Shown here: positions 30,054 through 42,893 of the stretch, piece by piece
Layout of the letters: each line of letters starts with the position of its first letter
How positions within the stretch are numbered: position 1 is the stretch's first letter
Source of the DNA: a virus
Virus record (IMG/VR): IMGVR_UViG_3300029915_000016
Location: 18,613 to 82,612 of that record
Direction: 5' to 3' (one strand)
DNA length: 64,000 nt
Translations under genes and position numbers: made by a program
Notes under the pieces: generated by a model
What the model saw: only the letters and a program-made list of their open reading frames with translations
Databases searched by the model: none
What the model was told of the DNA's origin: nothing

Positions 30054-30060
30054 TTACCTC

Positions 30061-30132
30061 ATGAAGAACTTGTGCTTATCTCTATCGTCTTATTGCTCAC
30101 TCAGTCTGAGTGGACGAGAGGCTATGGGATAA
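30061..30132 (+). CDS. Leader peptide 1 (MKNLCLSLSSYCSLSLSGREAMG)
   Basis: Codons 4-17 are all Leu/Cys/Ser/Tyr, matching downstream tRNAs. Confidence 0.85.
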   Translation: MKNLCLSLSSYCSLSLSGREAMG

Positions 30133-30156
30133 GTCCAAGTTTAGGATTTGTACCAC

Positions 30157-30185
30157 GAGCCTCCAGAAATGGGGGCTTTTGTTTT
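30157..30185 (+). terminator. Attenuator terminator 1
   Basis: GAGCCTCCA-GAAA-TGGGGGCTT + TTGTTTT; leader GAGGCT can pair with AGCCTC. Confidence 0.8.
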
Positions 30186-30187
30186 GT

Positions 30188-30266
30188 GGGAGAGTACGCC
30201 AACGGAAGAGCGTTTGGACTTAAAATCCAAAGGATATGACGGGTTCAAATCCCTCCTCTCCTACCA
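30188..30266 (+). tRNA. trnL: tRNA-Leu(TAA)
   Basis: Cloverleaf; TTGGA-ctTAAaa-TCCAA; CCA end. Confidence 0.8.
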
Positions 30267-30268
30267 TT

Positions 30269-30341
30269 GTGCCGTAAGCGAAGGACGAGCATCCGATCTG
30301 CAAAATCGGAGAACAGGGTTAAAGTCCCTGACGGCACTCCA
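30269..30341 (+). tRNA. trnC: tRNA-Cys(GCA)
   Basis: CCGAT-ctGCAaa-ATCGG; U discriminator; CCA. Confidence 0.85.
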
Positions 30342-30353
30342 AGTTTAAGATGT

Positions 30354-30439
30354 GCGCGTGTAGCAAAACGGCAAAGCGCAAGGTTTAGGCCCTTGAGGTG
30401 GAAACACCATTGGGAGTTCGAGTCTCCCCACGCGCACCA
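30354..30439 (+). tRNA. trnL: tRNA-Leu(TAG)
   Basis: CAAGG-ttTAGgc-CCTTG; long variable arm; CCA. Confidence 0.9.
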
Positions 30440-30452
30440 GATTTTAGAAGTA

Positions 30453-30530
30453 CCTCGCATGGCGAAATGGAAGAGCGGCGCTCTCAAAAAGCGTGTCATA
30501 TTCCCGGTTCGAGTCCGGGTGCGAGGACCA
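30453..30530 (+). tRNA. trnL: tRNA-Leu(CAA)
   Basis: GCGCT-ctCAAaa-AGCGT; CCA. Confidence 0.8.
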
Positions 30531-30531
30531 C

Positions 30532-30620
30532 GGAGAAGTGCCAGAACGGTAAATGGGCCGCACTGCTAATGCGGTGGTCCTGAAAAGGCCACGTGGGGTC
30601 AGCACCCACCTTCTCCGCCA
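30532..30620 (+). tRNA. trnS: tRNA-Ser(GCT)
   Basis: CCGCA-ctGCTaa-TGCGG; long arm; GCCA. Confidence 0.85.
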
Positions 30621-30627
30621 TGTTTAC

Positions 30628-30718
30628 GGAAGGATGAGCGGAATTGGTATCGCACTCGCTTGGAAAGCGAGCTTATGTCGAAAGGCATATGCAGGTTCGA
30701 GTCCTGTTCCTTCCGCCA
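30628..30718 (+). tRNA. trnS: tRNA-Ser(GGA)
   Basis: CTCGC-ttGGAaa-GCGAG; GCCA. Confidence 0.9.
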
Positions 30719-30722
30719 GTTT

Positions 30723-30813
30723 GGTATACGCCGTCAACGGTGAGACAATCCGCCTCGAAAACGGATGGGGTGTCAGAGATGGCACAGGAGTTCAATTCTC
30801 TCGTATACCGCCA
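30723..30813 (+). tRNA. trnS: tRNA-Ser(CGA)
   Basis: ctCGAaa loop; long arm; GCCA. Confidence 0.85.
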
Positions 30814-30818
30814 AGTTA

Positions 30819-30906
30819 GGCGAGTCCCGCAGACGGCTCTGCGAACGGCTTTGAATACCGTTGGCTCCTGAGAGGGATGGGGGATCGACACCTCGACTCG
30901 CCGCCA
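30819..30906 (+). tRNA. trnS: tRNA-Ser(TGA)
   Basis: ttTGAat loop; long arm; GCCA. Confidence 0.8.
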
Positions 30907-30912
30907 TGTTGT

Positions 30913-31003
30913 GCGTTGGCTGTAGTGACGGTGGACTGCACCAGACTGTAAATCTGGATTCTCTTTGAGGACACTGGGGGTTCAAATCCCTCCCAACGCA
31001 CCA
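30913..31003 (+). tRNA. trnY: tRNA-Tyr(GTA)
   Basis: CCAGA-ctGTAaa-TCTGG; ACCA. Confidence 0.9.
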
Positions 31004-31006
31004 GTA

Positions 31007-31426
31007 TTAAATATCCGAGTTGTACCAGCGAATCATCTTCCTAAATTCGCTTAATCTAATACAGATACAATGATTAATATATTGGCGAAGTGGAGAAATA
31101 ATAACTACATCTGGCATCTTCTTCATTATCCATTTCCCTTTTACCTTGACTCCAATCCGGGTAACTATCTCTGCGCCATAGGAACCTAACCTTAATCCAT
31201 CATTAGGTTTTTTATCTGTTAAGGTGGTCATGTCAAACGTGCTGACAAAATCTACTGCTTTACGGAAGTCTTTGATCGGAATCGTCACATCAGAAAAGTA
31301 TCCACGTACAGACACACGGAACCACATCCTTTTTCCGTCTGCCGTGACGCGAGCATCAAAACCCGGTGCTTCAAACACCGCTACGTTTACATCCCAATTA
31401 TTCCCGTTCAGATCGCGTGGTTTCAT
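31007..31426 (-). CDS. Hypothetical protein, probably leaderless
   Basis: TATAAT just upstream of ATG 31426; internal duplication IPIKDFRK/IRLSEFRK. Confidence 0.5.
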   Translation of the reverse strand: MKPRDLNGNNWDVNVAVFEAPGFDARVTADGKRMWFRVSVRGYFSDVTIPIKDFRKAVDFVSTFDMTTLTDKKPNDGLRLGSYGAEIVTRIGVKVKGKWIMKKMPDVVIISPLRQYINHCICIRLSEFRKMIRWYNSDI

Positions 31427-31734
31427 GAAAGCATTATACATCAAATCAAATAAGGCGCATTTTTTCCTTGACAACTCGCAAGGATAGCGATACGCTTTCT
31501 TTGGGTCTGGATGGCTTCGTATCCCGTTCAAGACGGACCCCACAAATGTCTACCAACGGGAGATAGGAGATAGCTTCTCGGTAGCTATCTGACTTGGTGG
31601 AGTCCTATTCAATACGAAATGGGCCAGAATTTGACGCGGGGAGACGGTATTTATACGTTTCCCCGTTTTCTGTTATACTAGGGGTGTCGGATGTGTCACC
31701 ATCCGGCAAAGCCTCATCGTTCGGAGGAACGAAT

Positions 31735-32475
31735 ATGACACCCCTATCCAAAGATACACCTATTACTCGTAAACGCGAAAGAGCATTATATTATCGAGAG
31801 TATAGGAAGAAAAAAGGTGCAAATCAAAGATCAGAACAAGAAGCCTTGCGTCTAAAAGCATTAGAAGAATACATCAAAAACCCAAACGTATGCTTGTTTT
31901 GCTCAAAAGTAATTGAACCTAAAATAACAGAAAAACTCTCGATAACTAAACGTAAGAGATACTGTGACGTTAAATGCTCAAGTGCGTCAAGAAAGAGAGA
32001 GTGTAAGTGTGTACCATGCATCTACTGCGGTAAACCATTAAAGAGACACCTAAAGAAATTCTGCACGAAAAGCTGCGCGTCTCGGTCAAGGGGAATCTTG
32101 CAATCTATTACGAAAGGCGATCTTTTCTCGAAAAGATCTGGATACCAATCGGCGAGGAGCGCCATACAAAGGGATGCTAGAACTGTGTACTTGTGGAGTA
32201 AAAGGAAACTGGAGTGTTTAATTTGTGGATACTCGAAGCATGTGGATATAGCGCACATCAAACCTGTTTCAGATTTCGATGATGCGTGTACTGTCGCTGA
32301 GATAAACGCGATGGATAACCTTGTTTCTCTATGTCCTAATCACCATTGGGAATTTGATCACGGTTTTTTGAAATTCAACGCTGGTTGCTTTGAAGGATCG
32401 AATACACGTAAAGTAATCCGAAAACGTGATTACGATCAAATAAACCTATTTCCACTAGCGCAGAATAATTCTTGA
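31735..32475 (+). CDS. HNH endonuclease with N-terminal Cys clusters
   Basis: CLICG...AHIKP...NLVSLCPNHH; RBS GGAGG. Confidence 0.85.
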   Translation: MTPLSKDTPITRKRERALYYREYRKKKGANQRSEQEALRLKALEEYIKNPNVCLFCSKVIEPKITEKLSITKRKRYCDVKCSSASRKRECKCVPCIYCGKPLKRHLKKFCTKSCASRSRGILQSITKGDLFSKRSGYQSARSAIQRDARTVYLWSKRKLECLICGYSKHVDIAHIKPVSDFDDACTVAEINAMDNLVSLCPNHHWEFDHGFLKFNAGCFEGSNTRKVIRKRDYDQINLFPLAQNNS

Positions 32476-32506
32476 CAACTGTATATAATTGCGTTATCGT
32501 TTAATT

Positions 32507-32584
32507 CGCGGGGTGGACTGGAGACGGTTCCAGCTTGGTCTCATAAGCCAAATCACGTCGGTTCGATTCCGATTCCCGCAACCA
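32507..32584 (+). tRNA. trnfM: tRNA-fMet(CAT), initiator type
   Basis: C1:A72 mismatch; ctCATaa; own promoter TTGACA-N17-TATCGT (32472-32500). Confidence 0.8.
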
Positions 32585-32658
32585 TTTCGAGACGTGACCT
32601 GATCTGTCTCAACGGGCTTGCACGATGACAAGCGCATCTAGCAATAAGGAGAATTGAG

Positions 32659-33018
32659 ATGCGTACACGCTGCAAGTTCAAAGTTGTGTCGGTGGAAGAA
32701 ATAGAAGGCGAAATCAGCCGCAAATCATTTAAGGGCGATTACGGAACCAACATCGATGAGTACGGTGGTCTAGCTGGACCGGAATACACCGAGAGTCAGG
32801 GTTTAAGAAACGGTGAACAGTACAAATGGGTTCCAACTGGGAAGTATTGCCAGAATGTACGGCTGGCCGCACAGTATGATTCGCGGGACTCGGAAGATAT
32901 GAGTTTTGCAGCGGCGACACCTTCAGGAGAACTCAAGATTCTTGTGAGTAACCCTGTGGTGGTTGGGAGTTTTAGGCCGGGGAAGAGTTTTTATCTCGAC
33001 CTGATTCCGTGTGAATAA
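32659..33018 (+). CDS. Hypothetical phage protein
   Basis: RCKFKV...ATPSGEL...NP...F.PGK.FYLD family motif; RBS AAGGAG. Confidence 0.7.
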   Translation: MRTRCKFKVVSVEEIEGEISRKSFKGDYGTNIDEYGGLAGPEYTESQGLRNGEQYKWVPTGKYCQNVRLAAQYDSRDSEDMSFAAATPSGELKILVSNPVVVGSFRPGKSFYLDLIPCE

Positions 33019-33238
33019 GGTTCCACGTCCCCTCACGGTATGGTGACGTGGTGGTGGTCCGGTGGGGTGCAAACCCTATTGGGGTCTGACAGCCGGGAAA
33101 GACCGGCAAGGATTGATGGGTTGCGTCGGCGCATCCCTTAACGGGTGGCCTAGGAGTTAGGAAACCAGACGGTTGTTACCGTTGGACGGAGAATACCGCT
33201 AGAACAGTTGGGCCGATGAGATGGGCGCTGTGGCACTC

Positions 33239-34480
33239 GTGAATCACCGTCATCTAAATCAGACAGTTTCCGGCTTCAATGGCATCTGCGTTAGCTAAAG
33301 ACTTGCGTCCCAACTTCCGTCTTACGTTGCCTCCACCAGCAGTAGCGCCAATCCCTGACGCCAGTATCCGTAAACCTTCGTCACGGATATTCTTCGCCGC
33401 ATTTATATCGCGGTCATGATGTGTTGAGCAGGATGGGCAGGTCCAAGAACGAACAATTAACGGCATCTTACCATTCTGAAATCCGCACTCGGAACAAACT
33501 TTGCTTGACGGAAAAAAGCGTCCTATTTTTATGAAAGCCTTACCATCGCGCTCTGCTTTGTACTTGAGAAACAATGTTAGTGTTCCCCACCCTACATCTG
33601 ATACTGCTTTCGCAAGGTTATGGTTAGCTATCATTCCCTTCACATTCAAATCCTCTACGATCACGACTTGGTTCTCATCAATGATCTTGCGAGAGACTTT
33701 GTGAAGGTAATCACGGCGCTGGTTTGTGATATGTTCATGAACTCGTGCAACCTGAATACGTGCTTTGTTGCGACTTGATGAGCCTTTCTTTTTGCGACTC
33801 AAAGATTGCTGCTTACGCTTTAGATTCTTTTCTGACTTGGCAATCCAGCGAGGATTATTAAACTTCGATCCATCGCTAGTAATTGCTAAATGCGTTAAAC
33901 CTACGTCTACACCGATTGCCTTCCCTTCGATAGAAATAGGAGGAACAGGAATAGAATCATCGGTAAGAATCGAAGCGTAGTAGTGGCCGCATGGATTCTT
34001 GCTCACCGTGACCGTCTTGATTCGTCCAACAATCTCACGGTGTATGACAGCCTTAACTTTGCCAACTTTAGGAAGATTTATTATACTCCCGTCTATTTTA
34101 ACGTGTTGCGGATACTGAATCGACTGTTTTCTATGCTTAGATTTGAATCGTGGATATCTAGCCCTCTTCTCAAAGAAGTTCTGGAACGCTGCTGCCAAAT
34201 TACGAATTGATGATTGAAGGACTTGCGCGTATGCGTCTTTCATCCATTCATGTTCTGTTTTCAATTCAGGCAAACGATTCGCCATTGCAACAAATGTGAG
34301 ACTTTTTCCGGTTTCCTTGTACACTTTCTGCGTTTCCGCCAAAGCCCAATTCCACGTCCAACGAGCACATCCAAACTGGCATACAAGTAAATTTTCCTGC
34401 TCAAAGGTGGGATAGAGACGAAATTTTGTCGTATTCAACATTTATTTAATCCTACCATGTATACGATTAAATGTCAATAT
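33239..34480 (-). mobile_element. IS200/IS605-derived tnpB unit with right end; no TnpA and no visible left end
   Basis: RE hairpin CTGTC..GACGG then TTCAC ending 33239; own TTGACA-N17-TAGGAT promoter. Confidence 0.6.
33254..34441 (-). CDS. tnpB: TnpB RNA-guided nuclease
   Basis: GVDVG, VEDL, Zn ribbon, DRDINAA; RuvC D-E-D intact. Confidence 0.95.
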   Translation of the reverse strand: MLNTTKFRLYPTFEQENLLVCQFGCARWTWNWALAETQKVYKETGKSLTFVAMANRLPELKTEHEWMKDAYAQVLQSSIRNLAAAFQNFFEKRARYPRFKSKHRKQSIQYPQHVKIDGSIINLPKVGKVKAVIHREIVGRIKTVTVSKNPCGHYYASILTDDSIPVPPISIEGKAIGVDVGLTHLAITSDGSKFNNPRWIAKSEKNLKRKQQSLSRKKKGSSSRNKARIQVARVHEHITNQRRDYLHKVSRKIIDENQVVIVEDLNVKGMIANHNLAKAVSDVGWGTLTLFLKYKAERDGKAFIKIGRFFPSSKVCSECGFQNGKMPLIVRSWTCPSCSTHHDRDINAAKNIRDEGLRILASGIGATAGGGNVRRKLGRKSLANADAIEAGNCLI

Positions 34481-34546
34481 TTCTCTATTTTTGCGTTTAC
34501 TTATTTCACTAAGATGTGATATAAAAAGTAACAGCAACAAGTTTAC

Positions 34547-34620
34547 GGTCCCATGGTCTAACGGTATGATTCATCTCTGTCTAAGATGCGTTCGGGGTTC
34601 GACTCCCCGTGGGATCGCCA
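34547..34620 (+). tRNA. trnD: tRNA-Asp(GTC)
   Basis: CATCT-ctGTCta-AGATG; GCCA. Confidence 0.85.
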
Positions 34621-34627
34621 TAGTTGT

Positions 34628-34711
34628 GCTGCCGTTCTCGGTACTGGTATCTGAGCACCGTCTTTCAAGCGGTTGAATTTAATGCGAGTTCGATTCTCGT
34701 CGGCAGCGCCA
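34628..34711 (+). tRNA. trnE: tRNA-Glu(TTC)
   Basis: ACCGT-ctTTCaa-GCGGT; GCCA. Confidence 0.8.
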
Positions 34712-34718
34712 AGTTTAT

Positions 34719-34793
34719 GTCCTTGTCTTCCAACGTTTAGGAACTCCGGCTCTCTACCGGATAACGCGGGGTAAGCACCCTCCAAGGACACCA
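34719..34793 (+). tRNA. trnE: tRNA-Glu(CTC)
   Basis: TCCGG-ctCTCta-CCGGA; atypical T loop; CCA. Confidence 0.75.
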
Positions 34794-34805
34794 TTTCGAG
34801 AACGT

Positions 34806-34907
34806 ATGACGAGAACGCAGATCGCAATAGGATTTGTAGTCAAGGTAGCAACCAAGATGTTTTGGTGGATAATTTTGATATTCCTGTTGTGGATACAAAG
34901 TTTGTGA
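34806..34907 (+). CDS. 33-aa hydrophobic peptide
   Basis: MTRTQIAIGFVVKVATKMFWWIILIFLLWIQSL. Confidence 0.35.
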   Translation: MTRTQIAIGFVVKVATKMFWWIILIFLLWIQSL

Positions 34908-35048
34908 GTTTGTGCGGCGGCGTGGAGCGACACGCTAAACCTTATCGTGATATTCATCCCCCACGAGATAAGATAAGGTGAGGAAGATTGGGGGAACGAC
35001 CTGTATGCCGGTTTCGTACCCGGCCCGCACAAATAAATCACAAACTGC

Positions 35049-35078
35049 TTGACATTTGAAAACGAACAAGGATATAGT
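35049..35078 (+). promoter_or_regulatory. Promoter of tRNA operon 2
   Basis: TTGACA-N18-TATAGT; ATG 7 nt downstream. Confidence 0.7.
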
Positions 35079-35085
35079 GAAAAAC

Positions 35086-35160
35086 ATGATGACCTTTACC
35101 ACACATACCGCGACACAAGCACCGACGCAGCCAGCCGGTAATCGCGGAAGTGCAGGATAG
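35086..35160 (+). CDS. Leader peptide 2 (MMTFTTHTATQAPTQPAGNRGSAG)
   Basis: Codons 3-21 all T/F/H/A/Q/P/G/N/R, the amino acids of the downstream tRNAs. Confidence 0.85.
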   Translation: MMTFTTHTATQAPTQPAGNRGSAG

Positions 35161-35203
35161 GGTCTCAGTAGGATTTTTACTCGCATAGCGAATAAAACTG
35201 AAG

Positions 35204-35236
35204 AGGCCCGGTTCAAACCAACGAATCGGGCCTTAG
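35204..35236 (+). terminator. Attenuator hairpin 2 (weak U tract)
   Basis: AGGCCCGGTTC/GAATCGGGCCT; competing GGGTCTC at 35160 pairs with GAGGCCC. Confidence 0.6.
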
Positions 35237-35251
35237 TGCGTAGGAGTAGCA

Positions 35252-35689
35252 ATGGGGAAAGCGATTCACGTTATTAGCAATGTTGATGAAGATATGAAGA
35301 CGGCAGATTGTGCGTTTTGTGGTCGCGTGAAAGTGAAACTGAAAAATAATGGTAAGGGTAGATCAAGGCGGTGGGCATGTACTATCGCGCAGAAAAAATG
35401 GGACGGTGCAAGATGTAAAACAGGAAAACCGCTTCGCAATATGACAGACGAGCAAATGGCTCACTACGTATTCAATCGACACGGAAGTTGTGATATTTGC
35501 GGTAGCGTACCACGCCGAATGTTGAACCGAGATCACTGCCATGTAACAGGAAACCTTCGCGGCTTGCTGTGCTATCGCTGTAATACGCTGCTAGGAAAAT
35601 TTGATGACAGCATCGAGAAACTCCGTATAAAGGCAGATATTTTCCTGAAGGCGGCATGTTATCTCGAAAGGAACGATACAAAGTTTTGA
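35252..35689 (+). CDS. Endonuclease VII-family nuclease
   Basis: CDICG..RDHCH.TG.LRGLLCYRCN. Confidence 0.85.
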   Translation: MGKAIHVISNVDEDMKTADCAFCGRVKVKLKNNGKGRSRRWACTIAQKKWDGARCKTGKPLRNMTDEQMAHYVFNRHGSCDICGSVPRRMLNRDHCHVTGNLRGLLCYRCNTLLGKFDDSIEKLRIKADIFLKAACYLERNDTKF

Positions 35690-35778
35690 TGTGCGATACC
35701 CGAGAGGTAGCAGGGACGATACTGTTAATATCGAGAGGTTTATCCTCCACCGTAGGTTCGAATCCTACTCGCACAGCC
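35690..35778 (+). tRNA. trnN: tRNA-Asn(GTT), long variable arm, encoded end GCCT rather than GCCA
   Basis: CGATA-ctGTTaa-TATCG. Confidence 0.75.
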
Positions 35779-35791
35779 TTTAGTAAGAAGT

Positions 35792-35865
35792 ACCTCGTTC
35801 GTTCAACGGCAGGACGACTGACTCTGACTCAGTTAATTGACGTTCAAATCGTCAACGGGGTGCCA
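35792..35865 (+). tRNA. trnQ: tRNA-Gln(CTG)
   Basis: ACTGA-ctCTGac-TCAGT; GCCA. Confidence 0.85.
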
Positions 35866-35876
35866 AAGATTAACGT

Positions 35877-35950
35877 GGGATCGTCGTTCAACGTTAGGAC
35901 ATTGCCCTTTGGAGGCAATTATCAAGGTTAGAATCCTTGCGATCCTGCCA
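35877..35950 (+). tRNA. trnQ: tRNA-Gln(TTG)
   Basis: TTGCC-ctTTGga-GGCAA; GCCA. Confidence 0.85.
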
Positions 35951-35958
35951 AACAGTAA

Positions 35959-36033
35959 GCGGGTGTATATCAACGGTAGATAGTCTCGTTGCCAACGAGA
36001 AGGAAGAGGGATCGTCACCCTCCACCCGCTCCA
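35959..36033 (+). tRNA. trnG: tRNA-Gly(GCC)
   Basis: TCTCG-ttGCCaa-CGAGA; TCCA. Confidence 0.85.
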
Positions 36034-36128
36034 TATTAGGAATAGTAGCCGACATGGAACATAAGATGATTTTGATGAGTGCCGACTTCCGAGAGGTACA
36101 CAAGGTTGTAGTGGCAAAACGTAAACAT

Positions 36129-36203
36129 GCTGGTATGGCCGAGAGCTTAGGCGCTGACCCCGTAAGTCAGAACACACAGGTTGAAATCCTGTTGCCAGCC
36201 CCA
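36129..36203 (+). tRNA. trnT: tRNA-Thr(CGT)
   Basis: CTGAC-ccCGTaa-GTCAG; CCA. Confidence 0.75.
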
Positions 36204-36238
36204 TTTCAAGAGAGTCAAGCTACGGATTGAGGTACGTG

Positions 36239-36784
36239 ATGAGCACGTTGATGAAAAAGCCGGTTTTGGTCCTTAACGCCTCGTATGAGCCGATCAGGAT
36301 AGTTCCAGCGCGTCGTGCTCTCACGTTGATTTGTAAGGGTGCTGCAATGGTTGAGCAACCTACACGGATAGAAGTCTATCCGGGTATAACTCTACCATCT
36401 GTAATCCGGCTTAGGACATATCGGCATATTCCTATACGCCTTCAAATTGTCAGTCGCAAGAACATTTATATCCGTGACGGTCATAGGTGCGGATATTGTG
36501 GACAGCAATTCAAAGGTGATGAACTGACGTTAGATCACATTCAACCAAGATCCCGTGGAGGAAAGAACGACTGGTCTAACCTAGTAACTTGCTGCCGAAA
36601 AGACAACCATCGTAAGGCAGACAGGACGCCAGAGGAGGCAGGAATGAAACTGCTCCGTAAGCCTCTTCCGGCAACAGTTCACACAGGACGTGGATTGCTA
36701 CGTTCCATGGCGCTTGAAGTTGGGGCGTGGGAAAAGTATTTGTATTCCGACTCAAAAGGAGAAACGAAGTTGCAGTTTTCGTAA
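36239..36784 (+). CDS. HNH endonuclease (McrA-like)
   Basis: VLVLNASYEP, RDGHRCGYCG, TLDHIQPRSRGG, WSNLV. Confidence 0.9.
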   Translation: MSTLMKKPVLVLNASYEPIRIVPARRALTLICKGAAMVEQPTRIEVYPGITLPSVIRLRTYRHIPIRLQIVSRKNIYIRDGHRCGYCGQQFKGDELTLDHIQPRSRGGKNDWSNLVTCCRKDNHRKADRTPEEAGMKLLRKPLPATVHTGRGLLRSMALEVGAWEKYLYSDSKGETKLQFS

Positions 36785-36788
36785 GTTT

Positions 36789-36860
36789 GCCGAATGCTCT
36801 GAGTAGCAGCGGGAGCTTGTATCTCCTGCCCGGTCGGTTCGATTCCGACATTCGGCTCCA
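36789..36860 (+). tRNA. trnT: tRNA-Thr(TGT)
   Basis: GGAG-ctTGTat-CTCC; TCCA. Confidence 0.75.
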
Positions 36861-36960
36861 AGTGGCTGAGGAAGCCAATCCGTTAAGCGTGGAGCACATG
36901 GCTTAACGGGCTAGGGGACACGGGGCGAGTGCTACGCAATCCGACTCCACCAAAGTTCAT

Positions 36961-37036
36961 GGCGGCTATAGTTCAGAGGCAGAACGCCGGTCTGTGGCAT
37001 CGGATGTCGGGATTTCAAAATTCCCTAGCCGCCCCA
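36961..37036 (+). tRNA. trnH: tRNA-His(GTG)
   Basis: G-1:C73; ctGTGgc. Confidence 0.85.
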
Positions 37037-37043
37037 TTTTAAC

Positions 37044-37118
37044 GGGCCAGTAGCATAGATGTAATGCGTCACCCCTGCAAGGTGAAGTTCGAGGACTCAA
37101 GCCCCTCCTGGTCCACCA
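37044..37118 (+). tRNA. trnA: tRNA-Ala(TGC)
   Basis: G3:U70; TCACC-ccTGCaa-GGTGA. Confidence 0.8.
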
Positions 37119-37127
37119 GTTTTGTAC

Positions 37128-37204
37128 GGCACTGTAGCTCAGAATGGTAGAGCAGGACTCTGAAAAGGTCCGTGTCGCGGTCTCGATAGCCGCCAGTGCC
37201 ACCA
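37128..37204 (+). tRNA. trnF: tRNA-Phe(GAA)
   Basis: GGACT-ctGAAaa-GGTCC; ACCA. Confidence 0.85.
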
Positions 37205-37205
37205 T

Positions 37206-37283
37206 CGGAATGTAGCGTAGTCTGCTTAACGCGCTCGCTTCGGGAGCGAGAGATCGCAGGTCGAAATCCTGCCATTCCGACCA
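37206..37283 (+). tRNA. trnP: tRNA-Pro(CGG)
   Basis: CTCGC-ttCGGga-GCGAG. Confidence 0.9.
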
Positions 37284-37289
37284 GTTTAA

Positions 37290-37364
37290 CGGGGTGTAGC
37301 TCAAAGGAAGAGCACTAGTTTTGGGAACTAGAGGCTGTGGTATCGTGATCCACCACCCCGACCA
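37290..37364 (+). tRNA. trnP: tRNA-Pro(TGG)
   Basis: CTAGT-ttTGGga-ACTAG. Confidence 0.85.
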
Positions 37365-37380
37365 TCTATTAGGAGTAGCG

Positions 37381-37626
37381 ATGAGGGATATAACAATACA
37401 GGAAGCATCCGAGTGTATCAAGAGAACGCTACCGCGCTGCACGCCTGATATTTGGTTTCTCACGCGCTTCAAGGATTACGTGAATAACAACACAGAAGTT
37501 GACGATATGGAGGAAGATGAATTTTTCGATAGTTTTCTTCCTTGCGCTTTGTGGGCTTTCACTGAAGCGATGTACAGCACGATTATGCCAGTTACTAGGT
37601 TTGGCGAATGTGCGCCTCTAGCTTAA
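37381..37626 (+). CDS. Small hypothetical protein
   Basis: RBS AGGAG; 3' end overlaps tRNA-Arg. Confidence 0.5.
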   Translation: MRDITIQEASECIKRTLPRCTPDIWFLTRFKDYVNNNTEVDDMEEDEFFDSFLPCALWAFTEAMYSTIMPVTRFGECAPLA

Positions 37627-37687
37627 TGGAAAGAGCGGCACTCTACGAAAGTGTCAGGTTCCCGTTCAAGTCGGGAGGGGCGTACCA
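37612..37687 (+). tRNA. trnR: tRNA-Arg(ACG)
   Basis: GCACT-ctACGaa-AGTGT; ACCA. Confidence 0.85.
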
Positions 37688-37717
37688 AAGATTTTCACAT
37701 GCAAGCAAAAATAGTGC

Positions 37718-37746
37718 TTGCAATTGCGCAGAGTTTGATGTAAGGT
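37718..37746 (+). promoter_or_regulatory. Putative promoter of the Y RNA/Ro60 operon
   Basis: TTGCAA-N17-TAAGGT with TG extension. Confidence 0.55.
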
Positions 37747-37865
37747 TGGAAATGTTGAGTTTGAGCTTCGGTGCAGGAATGGAAACATGACCATCCTGAC
37801 GAATTAGGTCTCAGAGTATCGAGCCTTGTAGCTAGGTTACAGGACGGCTACCACCGGAAATAAGT

Positions 37866-38011
37866 AAGCGAGAGCCGGAAGAGTTGGATTATCGCCTATG
37901 GAGCGGGTTATACGGGTTCGAGTCCCGTCTGGGGAACCAATAACGAATCGACTTCCCCGGTCGTCTAATGGCAGGACGCCTAAACATCCAGTTCGCTATT
38001 TGTTCTCGCTT
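37866..38011 (+). ncRNA. Y RNA-like 1 (YrlA-type; T arm before D arm)
   Basis: Terminal stem with GAGCCGGAAG/CTATTTGTTC; GGTTCGAGTCC precedes GTCTAATGGCAGGAC. Confidence 0.75.
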
Positions 38012-38018
38012 TAAGTTT

Positions 38019-38148
38019 TGCACGAGCCGTCCGAATTTCGTTATCCTCCGCCAAACTGGGGGCGTAGCTTAATGGCTAAAGCGCCAGAGTAATCTGGATA
38101 TTGGGTTCGAGTCCCACGTCAACGCGAAGTTCAATTTTTGTTCGTGCA
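38019..38148 (+). ncRNA. Y RNA-like 2 with embedded tRNA-like D/AC/T arms
   Basis: Same terminal motif; TAGCTTAATGG...GGTTCGAGTCC. Confidence 0.7.
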
Positions 38149-38155
38149 GTTTTTT

Positions 38156-38214
38156 GTACGGGTCGGAAGCCAGCGTTACCTTGTAAATATCGCTGTCTGA
38201 TTATTTATCCGTAC
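38156..38214 (+). ncRNA. Y RNA-like 3 (short)
   Basis: GTACGGGTCGGAAG...TTATTTATCCGTAC. Confidence 0.6.
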
Positions 38215-38230
38215 CAATGGAGAGTGAATC

Positions 38231-38710
38231 ATGGGTTTCATAGCCGAAGTTTCAGCCACAGATAGGTTTTGGAGTAAGGTTGATAAATCGGCTGGGCATG
38301 GTCCAAACGGGGACTGTTGGGTTTGGACTGCACGTAGGAATTTAGATGGCTATGGGCAGTTTCGTCCTTCCTCTTGGAGATCAGGTGGTAAACTTGTAAG
38401 CGCACACGTATTTTCGTATCGCGAGAGTTTTGGCGAGTTTGATGCTGGATTACAAGTCCTGCATCGCTGCGATAATCCGGCTTGCGTTAGGGCAGAACAT
38501 TTGTTTGTAGGTACGCAGGGTGACAATGTTCACGACATGATAGCGAAAAATAGATCGGGCCTAAATTTTCTTGGCTCTGATGTGATCGCTAACATTCTCG
38601 CGATGCATGGCAAAGGGATTAAACAGACAGAAATTGCCAAGAACGTTGGGATACACAAGCAATCTGTCTGGAGAATCATTAAGAGGATGGCGGTAAAATC
38701 CTTGGCGTGA
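38231..38710 (+). CDS. HNH endonuclease with C-terminal HTH
   Basis: RFWSKV..CWVW..VLHRCDNPACV..HLFVGT..DN. Confidence 0.9.
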   Translation: MGFIAEVSATDRFWSKVDKSAGHGPNGDCWVWTARRNLDGYGQFRPSSWRSGGKLVSAHVFSYRESFGEFDAGLQVLHRCDNPACVRAEHLFVGTQGDNVHDMIAKNRSGLNFLGSDVIANILAMHGKGIKQTEIAKNVGIHKQSVWRIIKRMAVKSLA

Positions 38711-38717
38711 TAAGTTT

Positions 38718-38787
38718 TGCATGGGTCGTTTGGCTCAGCGTTATCCTTCTAAGATAAAACCGCTGGCTGGTTGTTTTTATCCATGCA
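38718..38787 (+). ncRNA. Y RNA-like 4
   Basis: TGCATGGGTCG...TTTTATCCATGCA. Confidence 0.6.
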
Positions 38788-38795
38788 GTGTTTCA

Positions 38796-38938
38796 AAGTG
38801 CGAGTCGAAAGAAGTTGATTATCTCAACATGAATGTCATGGGTTCGATTCCCATCGTCGTAGTAATACGATGTAGCTCAGTTGGTAGAGCGTCTGGATGC
38901 CGAAAGGCGTATTCGACTTCAACCATTTATTCGCACTT
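38796..38938 (+). ncRNA. Y RNA-like 5 (YrlA-type; T arm before D arm)
   Basis: GTCGAAAG motif; GGTTCGATTCC then TAGCTCAGTTGGTAGAGC. Confidence 0.75.
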
Positions 38939-38942
38939 AAGT

Positions 38943-39044
38943 TTGTCAGAGCCGGATGGGTTTGGTTATCGGTTCAAATCCGCTACACCGCAAGGTGAAT
39001 GGCTGTCCGCAAGGACAATCCAAATCCGCTATTTGTTCTGACAA
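38943..39044 (+). ncRNA. Y RNA-like 6
   Basis: TTGTCAGAGCCG...CTATTTGTTCTGACAA; T arm; GCAA hairpins. Confidence 0.65.
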
Positions 39045-39050
39045 TAAGTT

Positions 39051-39127
39051 TGCAGGGTCGGAAGTTCACTGTTCTCTACTACGAATAGAATGCCGAAAGG
39101 CGCACGGTGGGCACTATTTATCCTGCA
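39051..39127 (+). ncRNA. Y RNA-like 7
   Basis: TGCAGGGTCGGAAG...CTATTTATCCTGCA. Confidence 0.6.
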
Positions 39128-39136
39128 TTGAATGTC

Positions 39137-39179
39137 CATAAGGGTCGAGCGGCAAAGCCGTTCCAATTTTATCCTTATG
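39137..39179 (+). ncRNA. Y RNA-like 8 (minimal; directly upstream of Ro60 RBS)
   Basis: CATAAGGGTCG...TTTTATCCTTATG. Confidence 0.5.
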
Positions 39180-39195
39180 ACCGGGAGAAAGACGA

Positions 39196-40881
39196 ATGAA
39201 GAACTATATCACCAATGTAATTGATCCATCCACCACGCCTCAGACTGAGGCACTTCCAAACAAAAACCAAGTGAAGAACTCCGCTGGCGGATTCGTGTTT
39301 GCTGTGACGCCATGGACCCGGCTTGAGAGGTTCCTTGTACTGGGAACTGAGGGCGGATCATACTACGCATCAGAGCGCGATCTGACCAAGACCAACATCG
39401 ATGGCCTCAAGTCTGCTTTGGCTGAGGATGGCATCCGGTTTGTCAACACGGTTGCCCAAATCAGTCATGCTGGCCGTGCGCCGAAGAATGATCCTGCGTT
39501 GTTTGCATTGGCTTTGGCTGTTGCCGACAAGCGCAAGGATGTATCCGCATACGCCCTGAGCAAGCTGTCAGACGTGGCGAGAATTCCCACACACCTGTTT
39601 TCCTTTGCACAGTACGTGCAGAGCCTACGGGGTTGGGGAAGGGCGCTGCGTGGTGGAGTGGCTGATTGGTATCTGTCTAAGCCTGCTGACAAGTTGGCTT
39701 ACCAACTTGCAAAGTACCAGTCGCGTAACGGATGGTCAAACGCAGACCTTTTGCGCCTGAGTCATGCCAACCCTGAGTTGCAGCCTGACCATAAGATTCT
39801 TTTGAATTGGGCTGTGAAGGGATGGGAGTCTGTTGGTGACGATCCTCATCCGTCAAAGGCTGTTCTTCCGGTGTGGGCATTTGAAAAGGCAAAGCGCCTC
39901 ACTCCTCAAACGGGAATCAAGGAACTGGTTAGTCTCATTGCGGATTACGATCTTCCGCGTGAGTGCATTCCTACCGAGTTCTTGTCTCATATTGAGGTAT
40001 GGGATGCATTGCTTCAGAAGATGCCAATGACGGCCATGATTCGCAACCTTGGAAAGATGACTTCCATCGGACTAGTCTCGCCAAACAGTGAGGCGGCAAA
40101 GATGGTAGGAAAGCGCCTTGAGGACGCAGAACTGCTCCACAAGGCACGGATTCATCCTATCTCTGTGCTGATGGCACAATCTGTCTACAAGTGCGGTCAT
40201 GGACTCAAAGGCAACTTGTCATGGTCTCCTGTACCGCGTGTTGTAAACGCTCTAGAGAAGGCTTTCTATGCTTCTTTTGCCAACGCACCAAAGACCGGAA
40301 AGAGGTTCTACATCGGCCTTGACGTTTCCGGTTCGATGGGAAGCGGATATGTTGCCGGAAGTCAATTGACTCCTCGTGAGGCTGCTGCTGCTATGGCAAT
40401 GGTAACCATGAAGACGGAGGACGAGTATTACATCGCTGGATTCACGAACGGCACATCCCGCTCTGCATGGTCTAGCCAAGGATATGGCTCTGGTGTCACG
40501 AAGTTGGAATTGACTCCTGATATGACTTTGAAAGCTGCTTGCCGGTACACTTCTGATTTGCCTTTCGGTGGAACAGACTGCGCTTTGCCAATGATCGATG
40601 CTTTGGAGAAGAAGATCCCTGCGGACGTGTTCATGGTCATCACTGACTCTGAAACGTGGGCAGGAACCAAGCACCCAACCGTTGCTTTGCAGGAATACCG
40701 CAACAAGATGAAGATCGACGCCAAGTTGATCGTCATGGGAATGGTATCGAACGAGTTCACGATTGCCGATCCTACCGATGCGGGACAGATGGACGTGGTT
40801 GGATTCGATGCGTCCGTTCCACAGGTCATCGCTCAGTTCATCGGCGTGGATGAGCCTCTGGCTGTTGAAACAGACGACTAA
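39196..40881 (+). CDS. rsr: Ro60/Rsr TROVE-vWA RNA-binding protein
   Basis: NSAGGFVF, RLERFLVLGTEGGSYY, GWGRALR, KYQSRNGWS, MIRNLGKM, vWA DVSGSM, ITDSET. Confidence 0.95.
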   Translation: MKNYITNVIDPSTTPQTEALPNKNQVKNSAGGFVFAVTPWTRLERFLVLGTEGGSYYASERDLTKTNIDGLKSALAEDGIRFVNTVAQISHAGRAPKNDPALFALALAVADKRKDVSAYALSKLSDVARIPTHLFSFAQYVQSLRGWGRALRGGVADWYLSKPADKLAYQLAKYQSRNGWSNADLLRLSHANPELQPDHKILLNWAVKGWESVGDDPHPSKAVLPVWAFEKAKRLTPQTGIKELVSLIADYDLPRECIPTEFLSHIEVWDALLQKMPMTAMIRNLGKMTSIGLVSPNSEAAKMVGKRLEDAELLHKARIHPISVLMAQSVYKCGHGLKGNLSWSPVPRVVNALEKAFYASFANAPKTGKRFYIGLDVSGSMGSGYVAGSQLTPREAAAAMAMVTMKTEDEYYIAGFTNGTSRSAWSSQGYGSGVTKLELTPDMTLKAACRYTSDLPFGGTDCALPMIDALEKKIPADVFMVITDSETWAGTKHPTVALQEYRNKMKIDAKLIVMGMVSNEFTIADPTDAGQMDVVGFDASVPQVIAQFIGVDEPLAVETDD

Positions 40882-40900
40882 CAACAACCGATTGTGAGCA

Positions 40901-40934
40901 GGGGGTGCGGGAATATTCGCACTCCCTATTTTTT
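40901..40934 (+). terminator. Intrinsic terminator after Ro60
   Basis: GGGGTGCGG/TCGCACTCC + T run. Confidence 0.7.
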
Positions 40935-40945
40935 CAGGAGTAAAC

Positions 40946-41269
40946 ATGTATATCGTAGCTCTAATCTGGATGCACTTTGTATCTGATTTCGTCCTACAAT
41001 CGGACAAGATGGCGATCAATAAGTCAAAGGATAACCGTTGGCTCTTCTTTCACTGCCTTGTGTACTCTACACCATTCTTTGTCTTTGGATGGAAGTTTGG
41101 ATGCGTCACACTCCTATTCCATTTCGTGACAGACTACTTCACATCTCGTGGAACGTCCTACTTGTGGAAGAAAGAGATGCGCCACTGGTTCTTCACTTTA
41201 ATCGGCTTCGATCAAGCGATCCATCTGACGACATTATTTTTCACGTACCGATTTTTATGCTTGCGTTAG
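40946..41269 (+). CDS. DUF3307-like membrane protein
   Basis: HFVSDFVLQ...K...HF.TD...DQAIH. Confidence 0.8.
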   Translation: MYIVALIWMHFVSDFVLQSDKMAINKSKDNRWLFFHCLVYSTPFFVFGWKFGCVTLLFHFVTDYFTSRGTSYLWKKEMRHWFFTLIGFDQAIHLTTLFFTYRFLCLR

Positions 41270-41289
41270 GACTCGAAGTGGTGTACATT
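41261..41289 (+). promoter_or_regulatory. Putative promoter of tRNA operon 3
   Basis: TTGCGT-N17-TACATT. Confidence 0.55.
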
Positions 41290-41337
41290 GATTTTACACC
41301 GCAGAAGATCGTGCAGTCGCAGTCGGAAGGATTGAAT

Positions 41338-41412
41338 ATGCAGATCAGGACCAAATCCGTGAGATCCATAACCATGACCGGGAAGCGGGTCATTTGGGGA
41401 ACTTGCGTATGA
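41338..41412 (+). CDS. Leader peptide 3 (MQIRTKSVRSITMTGKRVIWGTCV)
   Basis: RBS GGAAGGA; 19 of 23 post-start codons are amino acids of the downstream tRNAs. Confidence 0.85.
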   Translation: MQIRTKSVRSITMTGKRVIWGTCV

Positions 41413-41437
41413 GGGTCTGAGTGCATTTGTGGTACAC

Positions 41438-41468
41438 AGACCTTCGCCTAGAGCGAGGGTTTTTTGTT
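41438..41468 (+). terminator. Attenuator terminator 3
   Basis: AGACCTTCGC-CTAGA-GCGAGGGTTT + TTTGTT; antiterminator GAGGGTCTG (41411-41419) pairs with CAGACCTTC. Confidence 0.85.
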
Positions 41469-41484
41469 GGAGTTCTTTGACAAT

Positions 41485-41558
41485 AGGGGATTAGTCTAAT
41501 GGCAAAACGTCTGCCTCCAGAGCAGAATTTACGGGTTCGAGTCCTGTATCCCCTGCCA
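41485..41558 (+). tRNA. trnW: tRNA-Trp(CCA)
   Basis: TCTGC-ctCCAga-GCAGA; GCCA. Confidence 0.9.
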
Positions 41559-41563
41559 GATTT

Positions 41564-41632
41564 GGCACGTATCCAAGGCGGAAAGCGGCTCTCATAAAGC
41601 CGTAAACTGGTTCGAGTCCAGACGTGCTACCA
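41564..41632 (+). tRNA. tRNA-Met or Ile2 (CAT), short D arm
   Basis: CGGCT-ctCATaa-AGCCG; ACCA. Confidence 0.7.
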
Positions 41633-41693
41633 AGTTCACGGCGGTTTAAACCTAAACCGATGGCGCAACACCATCCTGCCGTGATTAGTTTTT

Positions 41694-41771
41694 GGGGGTG
41701 TAGCTAGTGTTGGCACCAGCAGTCTCCTTATAAGAGACCGTCCGAAGGTTCGATTCCTTCCACCCCTACCA
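41694..41771 (+). tRNA. trnI: tRNA-Ile(TAT)
   Basis: GTCTC-ctTATaa-GAGAC; ACCA. Confidence 0.8.
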
Positions 41772-41775
41772 TAGT

Positions 41776-41862
41776 GGGACTGTGGCCTAGTCAGGTTTTG
41801 GGCACCCGGCTCTTACCCGGCGCGGAAACGCAACGTAGGTTCAAATCCTACCAGTCCCACCA
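41776..41862 (+). tRNA. trnK: tRNA-Lys(CTT), long variable arm
   Basis: CCGG-ctCTTac-CCGG; GCGGAAACGC arm. Confidence 0.75.
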
Positions 41863-41873
41863 ACACTTTTAAC

Positions 41874-41949
41874 GGGTTTGTCCTCCAACGTCTAGGAAAC
41901 TCGCCTTTTAAGCGAAGCAATGTGGGTTAGAGTCCCACCAAACCCACCA
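41874..41949 (+). tRNA. trnK: tRNA-Lys(TTT)
   Basis: TCGC-ctTTTaa-GCGA; ACCA. Confidence 0.8.
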
Positions 41950-41950
41950 T

Positions 41951-42028
41951 GCACTCGTACCGGCCTCGCCTTCTAAGCGAGTTCACCGTAACTGGAATAT
42001 GCGAGTTCGACTCTCGCCGAGTGCCCCA
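41951..42028 (+). tRNA. trnR: tRNA-Arg(TCT), no canonical D arm
   Basis: Perfect acceptor, anticodon and T arms; only 7 nt at the D position. Confidence 0.7.
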
Positions 42029-42033
42029 GTTTT

Positions 42034-42110
42034 GCCGCTGTATCTCCCCTGCCTCCTAAGCAGGTAAGAGTAAGTGGATGATGACGGTTCGAGTCCGTCC
42101 AGCGGTTCCA
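42034..42110 (+). tRNA. trnR: tRNA-Arg(CCT), no canonical D arm
   Basis: Same architecture as the neighbouring Arg(TCT). Confidence 0.7.
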
Positions 42111-42125
42111 TGAGGGAGAAGTGAA

Positions 42126-42401
42126 ATGCGAAAGTCATCATTAACCGATCCATTGACGGACGAGGAAGTAGACGCAGCAAACGCCGATCCTAGCGACATG
42201 TGGATTCATGTGCGGTGCAAGGATTGTGGGGATGTTGAGTGTTGCTTCAACCGGACAGTAACGTCATGGCAACGTCGGTGTTTTCCTTGCCAGATGGGTT
42301 GGAAGCCGATGAAGAGCGTTAAGAAGATCGCAGAGGTCAACGGATTCAAGCCAGTTCCTATGCGACAACAGGAAGATACGTTTGATCGTGAAACACGATG
42401 A
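42126..42401 (+). CDS. Small Zn-ribbon protein
   Basis: CKDC...CFPC; RBS GGGAG. Confidence 0.55.
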   Translation: MRKSSLTDPLTDEEVDAANADPSDMWIHVRCKDCGDVECCFNRTVTSWQRRCFPCQMGWKPMKSVKKIAEVNGFKPVPMRQQEDTFDRETR

Positions 42402-42408
42402 ACTTTTT

Positions 42409-42483
42409 GCAGGCGTGGTGAAACGGAGATCACAAAGCCCCCCGAAGGCTTAATTCTCGGTTCGAATCCGAGCGCTTGTACCA
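42409..42483 (+). tRNA. trnR: tRNA-Arg(CCG)
   Basis: AAGCC-ccCCGaa-GGCTT; ACCA. Confidence 0.8.
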
Positions 42484-42491
42484 TAGTTTTT

Positions 42492-42566
42492 GCCCCGCTC
42501 GTCTAAAGGTAAAGACCGAAGTCCTACAAACTTCAGATCGGCGTTCAATTCGTCGGTGGGGCACCA
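42492..42566 (+). tRNA. trnV: tRNA-Val(TAC)
   Basis: GAAGT-ccTACaa-ACTTC; ACCA. Confidence 0.8.
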
Positions 42567-42645
42567 AGTTCGGAGTCTGAGGGTTGGTAGCCCTTGGAGG
42601 TTACAACGCACAGATCGAACACCTGTGACTCTGGGATGTGTAAAT

Positions 42646-42719
42646 GTCGATGTAGCACAGTGGCAGTGCCATTGCTCGGTAAGCAATAGACCCGCGTTCG
42701 ATTCGCGGCATCGGCTCCA
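42646..42719 (+). tRNA. trnT: tRNA-Thr(GGT)
   Basis: ATTGC-tcGGTaa-GCAAT; TCCA. Confidence 0.8.
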
Positions 42720-42720
42720 T

Positions 42721-42798: not shown

Positions 42799-42806
42799 TA
42801 CGTTGT

Positions 42807-42890: not shown

Positions 42891-42893
42891 TCT

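Follow-up and report, generated by a model that had tools for sequence, protein, structure and literature searches.

A leaderless short reading frame, matched in its codons to the tRNA genes behind it, as a candidate attenuator in the tRNA array of a peat-soil phage

The DNA considered here, called the window throughout, is a stretch of 64,000 nucleotides (nt) comprising positions 18,613 to 82,612 of the IMG/VR virus record IMGVR_UViG_3300029915_000016, and all positions given below are those of the window. The source record is an 82.6-kb linear virus genome, with a CheckV completeness estimate of 83%, from an uncultured phage of peat soil. Three blocks of transfer RNA (tRNA) genes in this genome are each preceded by a short open reading frame (ORF), and the subject of this analysis is the second of these leaders together with the hairpin that follows it and the 12 tRNA genes of block 2. 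The reading that we favour, with moderate confidence, is that the element is one of three ribosome-mediated transcription attenuators of the phage tRNA array, each guarding one block. A short ORF behind a promoter, codons matching the tRNAs, a predicted antiterminator helix and compensatory base changes were all found, in so far as such features can be read from sequence. The attenuator had been proposed in an earlier, sequence-only reading of this DNA, and the block specificity of the codon match, conservation in nine further lineages, covariation and the antiterminator pairing now support it. The parts of the element are as follows.

35049-35078, plus strand: promoter P2, with the -35 TTGACA at 35049-35054, an 18-nt spacer and the -10 TATAGT at 35073-35078
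35086-35160, plus strand: leaderless leader ORF of 24 codons plus TAG, with its sensor codons at 35092-35148
35091-35096, plus strand: region 1, which pairs with 35159-35164 in untranslated RNA (1:2 helix) in minimum free energy folds
35155-35166, plus strand: region 2, which overlaps the stop codon and forms the 5' strand of the antiterminator, with its core GGGTCTC at 35160-35166
35176-35196, plus strand: small central hairpin nested within the 2:3 helix, seen in folds and with A-U / U-A and C-G / U-A exchanges among lineages
35203-35234, plus strand: terminator-like hairpin (regions 3 and 4) without a U tract, from folds and covariation

P2 scores 11/12 and is the best promoter-like site within 29000-44000. 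The ATG of the leader at 35086 lies 7 nt past the -10 and has no Shine-Dalgarno (SD) sequence, and the same spacing between -10 and start is found at leader 1 of the window. This geometry is repeated across lineages, which is evidence for a leaderless mRNA. The leader translates as MMTFTTHTATQAPTQPAGNRGSAG followed by the stop codon, and its codons 3-21 specify 19 successive residues drawn from N, Q, G, T, H, A, F, P and R with all nine present. The sequence-only reading had described an ATG 7 nt past the -10 with no SD, 19 successive codons over nine amino acids including pairs of codons for Gln, Pro and Thr, a 12-tRNA cluster behind the leader, a GGGTCTC at the stop codon pairing with GAGGCCC in the hairpin arm, and a hairpin with no good U tract that is followed at once by an EndoVII gene. 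Each of these agrees with what was found: 11 of the tRNAs are called by ARAGORN and one by Rfam, GGGTCTC at 35160-35166 begins with the final G of TAG and pairs with GAGGCCC at 35203-35209, the tail of the hairpin has 2 U in 8 nt, and the gene next to it matches PF02945 with an E value of 1.1e-14.

The match between leader and block is both specific and beyond chance. All 12 tRNAs of block 2 have at least one cognate codon in the leader under strict, conservative wobble rules (CAA, CAG, CCG, CCA, ACA, ACG, AAT, GGT, CAT, TTT, CGC and GCA/GCG), and 15 of its 23 codons are cognate to the block under strict wobble. When the three leaders were set against the three blocks the diagonal of the 3x3 table was complete (8/8, 12/12 and 10/10), against 1-5 off the diagonal. 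None of the six frames of the 82.6-kb genome has a run of the block-2 amino acids longer than these 19 residues, and the longest Leu/Cys/Ser/Tyr run of the genome is the leader preceding block 1. A run of at least 19 appeared somewhere in ~5% of order-2 Markov-simulated genomes, which amounts to ~2e-4 for this 600-nt place, and 10 of the 54,491 other windows free of stop codons matched all 12 tRNAs. When 20-codon windows were scored without bias for the 8 tRNAs that follow them, the leaders ranked top, yet this does not discriminate, because other windows equally reach 8/8. Short ORFs and hairpins are common, and 8/23 codons mismatch block 2, as might be expected of a chance ORF and hairpin or of a small functional peptide unrelated to tRNAs. 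Such an origin is nevertheless extremely improbable given the ~2e-4 for this place and a pattern that recurs before both other blocks and in nine more lineages, and a peptide function accords poorly with leaders in which the order of residues is reshuffled and the composition kept.

Those further lineages came from two kinds of search. A search with the large terminase (TerL) yielded 22 related viral contigs at 50-69% identity, and the three complete TerL relatives (G001, G002 and G003) have the same order of tRNA blocks with a homologue of leader 2 just 5' of tRNA-Asn. A search with the motif that follows the stop codon, GGGTCTCAG plus 3 nt plus GATTTTT, found the viral contig L069 and, in metagenomes, L073, L074 (the same as L070 and L079), L076, L078, L080 (the same as L069) and L081. 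Ten distinct lineages were thus defined: the window, G001, G002, G003, L069, L073, L074, L076, L078 and L081. P2 is conserved in all 10, with TTGACA (TTGCAA in G002), a spacer of 17-18 nt and a -10 of the TAnnnT type, and the start codon, which is GTG in G001, lies 6-7 nt past the -10 in 9/10. The leader peptides are reshuffled among lineages, to the point that the one from G002 cannot be aligned, and all are made of Q, H, R, A, F, T, P, G and N; MRLIPQHRAFTPATATPQGNRGAD and MKLNRANSNHSFNPAAQPQGTTRVRGSA are examples of how far they diverge. In 8/9 lineages with data the leader covers every block-2 tRNA detected, and in the ninth it covers 9/10. The isoacceptor codon pairs CAA/CAG, CCA/CCG and ACA/ACG are present in every lineage. 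Leaders 1 and 3 likewise have homologues in relatives. Lack of conservation in relatives had been set beforehand as a finding that could refute the attenuator; the leader is kept in nine further lineages.

It is also clear that what is conserved is not the peptide as such, since a degenerate pattern of 11 leader codons had no match in viral or metagenome contigs. The region 34000-38500 gave only tRNA-level matches to cultured phages by blastn. Searches of viral contigs with the protein of the neighbouring Acb3 gene or the EndoVII protein singly, and with an EndoVII alignment, gave no match, and loci collected by means of Ro60 (28 viral and 8 genomic, including the large arrays L023 and L029) had no convincing matched leaders.

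The predicted RNA structures are mutually exclusive in the way that attenuation would demand. The hairpin (35203-35214 with 35223-35234) has 12 bp, an 8-nt loop and a free energy of -21.8 kcal/mol, and region 2 forms a duplex with 35203-35215 at -17.2 kcal/mol, which 0.6% of shuffles equalled. In constrained folds the hairpin formed when the region of the stop codon was masked, and the 2:3 helix formed when the leader was masked and the 3' arm was not yet made (-18.9 kcal/mol versus -21.8 for the hairpin). The 1:2 helix is also found in folds of L069, G001 and G002, an arrangement as in the trp model. A 2:3 duplex is possible in 5/5 lineages tested, at -14.7 to -18.6 kcal/mol, and in G002 it uses different strands (GGCUCGG with CCGAGCC) at the same position at the leader end. 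Over ten distinct sequences 94% of hairpin cells are paired and 7/12 pairs are altered on both sides, a count taken from a covariance-model alignment that was fitted to the model structure. That alignment was used since RNAalifold on a MAFFT alignment had misaligned the arms. For the whole structure the covariation score was 0.406 versus 0.178 when shuffled (0/500 as high), and slid partners gave at most 0.139. Rfam covariance models with E up to 0.1 identified no T-box or other riboswitch in 27000-46000.

The stretch GGGTCTCAG-nnn-GATTTTT (35160-35178 in the window) is invariant in nine lineages though leaders, hairpin arms and the acceptor stems of tRNA-Asn diverge, and attenuator 3 has GGGTCTGAG directly past its stop (41413-41421). 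The invariant motif may be a pause signal or reflect a double pairing constraint.

The steps by which such an element would act are all inferred, and they build on an anatomy, codon match, conservation, hairpin covariation and indel (described below) that were observed. Host RNA polymerase would start at P2, with the transcript beginning at or next to the AUG, and a ribosome would translate the 24-codon leader behind the moving polymerase. If decoding were fast the ribosome would reach the UAG and cover GGGUCUC (region 2), the hairpin at 35203-35234 would form and transcription would stop before the genes. If any of the 12 sampled codon types were read slowly, because its tRNA was scarce, cleaved or uncharged, the ribosome would lag, region 2 would be left free to pair with the 5' arm of the hairpin and polymerase would enter the block. 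The new tRNAs would quicken decoding of the leader and so close the loop. In the window, transcription from P2 would be expected to reach the EndoVII gene, a conserved HNH_5 gene and the 12 tRNAs, and to be attenuated only partly or hardly at all.

A substantial number of observations weigh against this scheme and must be set beside it, in addition to the way in which the covariation count was obtained. The leader contains eight non-cognate codons (ATG, ACC three times, GGA twice, AGT and GCC), and it samples each tRNA with only 1-3 codons and has no run as in hisL. L073 has TAT where others have CAT, so that its tRNA-His is present and uncovered; G002 retains TTT without a detectable tRNA-Phe, and several lineages retain CCG without a tRNA-Pro(CGG). 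The content of the leader does not track tRNA loss. Leaderless translation in the host is an assumption. Among the listed sequencing runs that contain the phage sequence none was RNA. The hairpin tail of the window has only 2 U in 8 nt, the T runs of L069 and G003 lie 5-7 nt from the stem, and intrinsic termination at hairpins of the leader-2 type may be generally weak.

The signal might also be something other than the supply of the block's own tRNAs. With nine amino acids, each represented by 1-3 codons, the leader adds up a large number of decoding steps, a ribosome is stalled by uncharged tRNA no less than by absent tRNA, and the Anabaena L-array is induced under impaired translation (PMC8421152); the element could then report a general slowing of translation, as in amino-acid starvation or stress that targets the ribosome. 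The three leaders, however, partition their codons by block, and the pairs CAA/CAG, CCA/CCG and ACA/ACG recur in every lineage. A general stress sensor needs neither feature, and we regard this signal as unlikely.

The lineages differ in the sequences that follow the hairpin, and with them in the presence of a T run:

G002: UUUUGAUU (counted from GGGGG)
L074 and L073: UUUCGAUU
G001 and L076: GUUUGUGG
L069: GGUGCUUUU
G003: GAACUGUUU
Window: AGUGCGUA
L081: GGUGCGUA
L078: GCGUUAGG

In the window the hairpin is followed by AGUGCGUAGGAG and then by the EndoVII gene. A hairpin joined to a U tract, which defines an intrinsic terminator, is absent from the window copy; leaders 1 and 3 of the window have one, as do G002, L074, L073, G001 and L076. 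The hairpins of leaders 1 and 3 are canonical terminators with 7 U in 8 nt lying directly 5' of their first tRNA, which indicates that the polymerase reading this genome presumably uses ordinary terminators; a terminator scan listed both of them and not that of leader 2. Most relatives with no gene behind the hairpin have a T run 0-7 nt past the stem, and the window, L081 and L078 have none. With no U tract at the window hairpin weak termination is to be expected at this copy, and the attenuator is probably leaky here, as judged from its sequence.

The gene behind the hairpin has been gained or lost within this group of phages. Its features are:

35247-35677, plus strand: indel carrying the EndoVII ORF, absent from L081, in which GTAGGAG is joined straight to ACAAAGTTT
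35252-35689, plus strand: EndoVII-type HNH endonuclease gene (PF02945 Endonuclease_7, E 1.1e-14) with its own SD, TAGGAG, at 35241-35246
35684-35689, plus strand: T run (TTTT) and stop of the nuclease gene, directly 5' of tRNA-Asn, matching the T-rich spacer that precedes tRNA-Asn in relatives

The closest relative 3' of the stop codon is L081, with 81/88 positions identical over 35159-35246, and it equals the window without 35247-35677, that is without the EndoVII ORF minus its last four codons. L081 retains the SD and two codons of the ORF and its junction looks like a deletion scar; the alternative is an insertion that borrowed the SD and codons. No gene lies between the hairpin and tRNA-Asn in six lineages (L069, G001, G003, L074, L073 and L076), and tRNA-Asn begins 14-25 nt past the hairpin in four of these six and in L081; in L076 tRNA-Asn is not called by ARAGORN and no ORF intervenes. 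The idea of an insertion in the sequence-only reading is supported by the indel relative to L081 and by the six lineages that are free of the gene. Its suggestion that the insertion may have weakened termination is upheld only in part, as the empty allele of L081 also has no T run. Similarly, the comparison that it had called for, whether a U tract is present in relatives without the EndoVII gene, gave a T run in most of the gene-free lineages and none in L081. The sub-lineage that has a nuclease at this junction, or the scar of one, has no T run, the empty allele L081 included. The missing U tract and the nuclease gene therefore go together by lineage, which need not mean that one caused the other.

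It is possible, though doubtful, that the window copy is a relic, in which the hairpin, for want of a U tract, has ceased to terminate, P2 is constitutively active and only recent ancestry or recombination preserves the leader. The tail AGUGCGUA with its 2 U in 8 nt, the absence of the hairpin from the terminator scan beside leaders 1 and 3 with 7 U in 8, and the want of a T run in the closest lineages, L081 and L078, are all as a relic would have them. Four peat DNA runs are near-clonal, so that the arrangement may be young: their contigs are near-identical, with no joint across the EndoVII gene, and the only variant among them is GT>TC at 35168-35169 in one 97-nt contig of depth 8 from run X12. 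In contrast, the leader covers 12/12 tRNAs even though its first (N-terminal) half has diverged strongly from that of L081, whereas the two share 92% identity over 35159-35246; neither the hairpin nor region 2 is disrupted, and L081 itself has full coverage (10/10) without a proximal T run. Coverage kept without a T run in both L081 and the window suggests continued selection in the sub-lineage.

The variant GT>TC weakens a small helix (35165-69 with 35197-201) and there is no compensating change in that contig. Contigs from several peat runs break inside the region 35166-35233.

The missing U tract might also be explained if termination depended on Rho or another factor. Rho would then load onto the C-rich, G-poor leader RNA, which the ribosome would cover or leave exposed depending on its position, as in tnaC, and the hairpin would be a site of pausing or processing. 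To the eye 35090-35135 is C-rich and G-poor, and ~90 nt of untranslated RNA separate the stop codon from the next gene. The richness in C, however, follows from the codon set (ACN, CCN, GCN and CAR); leaders 1 and 3 and the leader-2 elements of G002, L074, G001 and L076 have ordinary hairpin and T-run terminators; and a covarying hairpin in competition with a 2:3 helix is what marks intrinsic attenuation. Factor-dependent termination is accordingly held to be very unlikely.

At the junction between hairpin and tRNA-Asn the EndoVII gene is missing in 8/9 relatives, and the gene found there in G002 shares only its N-terminal 50 amino acids (aa), at 46% identity. That gene (L062:10476-11000) follows an intact hairpin and T run, is HNH-like with no Pfam match and has a frame that runs into tRNA-Asn. 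At the same junction L078 has a gene for a PD-(D/E)XK endonuclease (L078:29-466, minus strand; PF11645, E 5e-34). The presence of nuclease genes at one site in the window, G002 and L078 marks the junction as a recurrent landing site for free-standing nuclease genes, and by their position in the sequence all of them lie behind the putative switch. A nuclease domain together with presence/absence polymorphism at one site among relatives makes the gene a probable free-standing homing endonuclease gene. The EndoVII protein itself was found in just two clusters among 5.8 billion sequences.

Free-standing homing endonuclease genes in phage tRNA clusters are known from T4 SegB, in which, as here, a nuclease gene lies between genes of a tRNA region and is present or absent among related phages. 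The difference is that three unrelated nuclease families (PF02945 in the window, HNH-like in G002 and PF11645 in L078) occupy one junction, behind an attenuator hairpin.

The trp, his, thr and ilv leaders work by ribosome-mediated attenuation, and mutants in hisR, a tRNA-His gene, derepress the his operon, so that such leaders sense the supply of tRNA besides that of amino acids. The phage element resembles the multivalent leaders of enterobacteria (thrL and ilvGMEDA; also trpL, hisL and pheL) in its promoter-proximal short ORF with regulatory codons, in its exclusive 1:2, 2:3 and 3:4 helices, in a region 2 that would be masked by the ribosome at the stop codon and in the several amino acids that would be sensed. 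It differs from them in that it would regulate the very tRNA genes that decode the leader, giving direct feedback, in having 12 tRNA species sampled by 1-3 codons each with no codon runs, in its predicted leaderless mRNA, in the absence of a U tract from the window copy and in being carried by a phage. T-box riboswitches likewise report the state of a specific tRNA by antitermination, but they bind uncharged tRNA directly without a ribosome and control synthetase or amino-acid genes.

The long tRNA array (trn operon) of Anabaena sp. PCC 7120, the most thoroughly studied of tRNA arrays, is kept off by the repressor TrcR and comes on under translational stress (PMC8421152, PMC10272220). It too is a supernumerary, horizontally mobile tRNA array, silent by default, switched on when translation is impaired and associated with HNH genes. 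It differs in that a repressor binds direct repeats over the -10 and transcription start, and in neither paper is a leader, attenuator or terminator mentioned (PMC8421152, PMC10272220). The TrcR repeat motif is absent at P2, with one match in the window (25231) that is at chance level, and there are no tandem 9-nt direct repeats over the -10 and start in 34950-35260.

The literature searched contained nothing on tRNA genes controlled by a leader peptide. The tRNA genes of phages became known more than 50 years ago and, to our knowledge, hardly anything is known of their regulation. If the attenuator reading is correct, a leader composed of the codons that the downstream tRNAs read would form a direct circuit for supply on demand, and the mechanism of trp and his would be extended from amino-acid synthesis to the decoding machinery. 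The role of phage tRNAs is debated between codon compensation, replacement of degraded host tRNAs and escape from tRNA-cleaving defences (PMC10264068, PMC11464382, PMC11555353), and the hypothesis of tRNA depletion could then be put to the test in a simple reporter. From the conserved parts (a leaderless start, a region 2 placed at the stop codon and the covarying hairpin) one could build sensors that report how fast selected codons are decoded. The window copy would be a natural experiment, since the same switch exists in forms that have a U tract and forms that lack one, and three different nuclease genes stand behind it in different lineages. Tentatively, three gated blocks may let the phage sense which host tRNAs have been depleted by anticodon nucleases or host tRNA decay, induce only the matching set and shut off automatically, so that the array would be an inducible counter-defence island with homing endonucleases inserting behind the switch. 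The setting of this proposal includes an Acb3 anti-CBASS gene and a Ro60/Y-RNA module beside the array.

Block 2 occupies 35690-37687 and its genes are as follows.

35690-36203, plus strand: tRNA-Asn(GTT), Gln(CTG), Gln(TTG), Gly(GCC) and Thr(CGT), by ARAGORN and Rfam, in the same order in relatives
36239-36784, plus strand: HNH_5 endonuclease gene inside the block (PF14279/PF01844)
36789-37364, plus strand: tRNA-Thr(TGT), His(GTG), Ala(TGC), Phe(GAA), Pro(CGG) and Pro(TGG), by ARAGORN and Rfam, with Ala (37044-37115) by Rfam only
37381-37626, plus strand: ORF of 81 aa, its 3' end overlapping the start of tRNA-Arg
37612-37687, plus strand: tRNA-Arg(ACG), the final tRNA of the block, by ARAGORN and Rfam

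ARAGORN detects 11 of the tRNAs and Rfam supplies the twelfth with 51.6 bits, which we read as tRNA-Ala(UGC) with a G3:U70 pair. The HNH_5 gene sits between tRNA-Thr(CGT) and tRNA-Thr(TGT), a position kept in 9/9 relatives at 52-86% identity (tblastn), and it looks like a fixed component of block 2. The 81-aa ORF has no Pfam family and no homologue among the nine relatives. The tRNA-Asn at 35690-35778 is 89 nt long with a long variable arm; the arm is extended also in G003 and L074 and is of the usual short form elsewhere.

The whole array extends over ~30.2-42.9 kb on the plus strand with 30 tRNAs by ARAGORN, and more by Rfam or lenient ARAGORN:

30188-31003, plus strand: tRNA block 1, Leu/Cys/Ser/Tyr
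34547-34711, plus strand: tRNA-Asp and tRNA-Glu
35690-37687, plus strand: tRNA block 2, Asn Gln Gln Gly Thr / Thr His Ala Phe Pro Pro / Arg
41485-42890, plus strand: tRNA block 3, Trp Met Ile Lys Lys ... Arg Val Thr Ile Gly

A search of sequencing runs found this sequence almost unchanged in 20 DNA runs from peat metagenomes. A Y-RNA-like region and a Ro60 gene separate block 2 from block 3. The YrlA-like (Y RNA) match at 38805-38919 has 41 bits, below the gathering score, and adjoins the Ro60/TROVE-like gene at 39196-40881, relatives of which from other viral contigs reach 40-52% identity. Directly 5' of the leader-1 promoter a gene of 302 aa (29139-30047) matches Pfam Acb3, a CBASS inhibitor, with an E value of 2e-74, and an anti-defence gene thus abuts the tRNA array. 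Genes of the IS605/TnpB type occur in and around the array at 33254-34441 (minus strand), 44147-45286 (plus strand) and 48671-49741 (plus strand), one of them between an orphan tRNA-like gene at 32507 and the Asp and Glu tRNAs.

Unusual RNAs were also seen in the arrays of relatives. tRNAs with a UCA anticodon (SeC in ARAGORN) follow block 2 in G003 and L069 (L069:2182-2254) and lie 5' of block 2 in G002 (L062:7745-7817). The G003 array (L063, positions 8809 and 13850, reverse-complemented) carries a tRNA with a UCA anticodon and one with a UUA anticodon called Stop, and these tRNAs of the relatives are possible suppressor tRNAs. The tRNA array of G002 contains a permuted transfer-messenger RNA (RF04321, 78 bits, Rfam) at L062:6420-6685.

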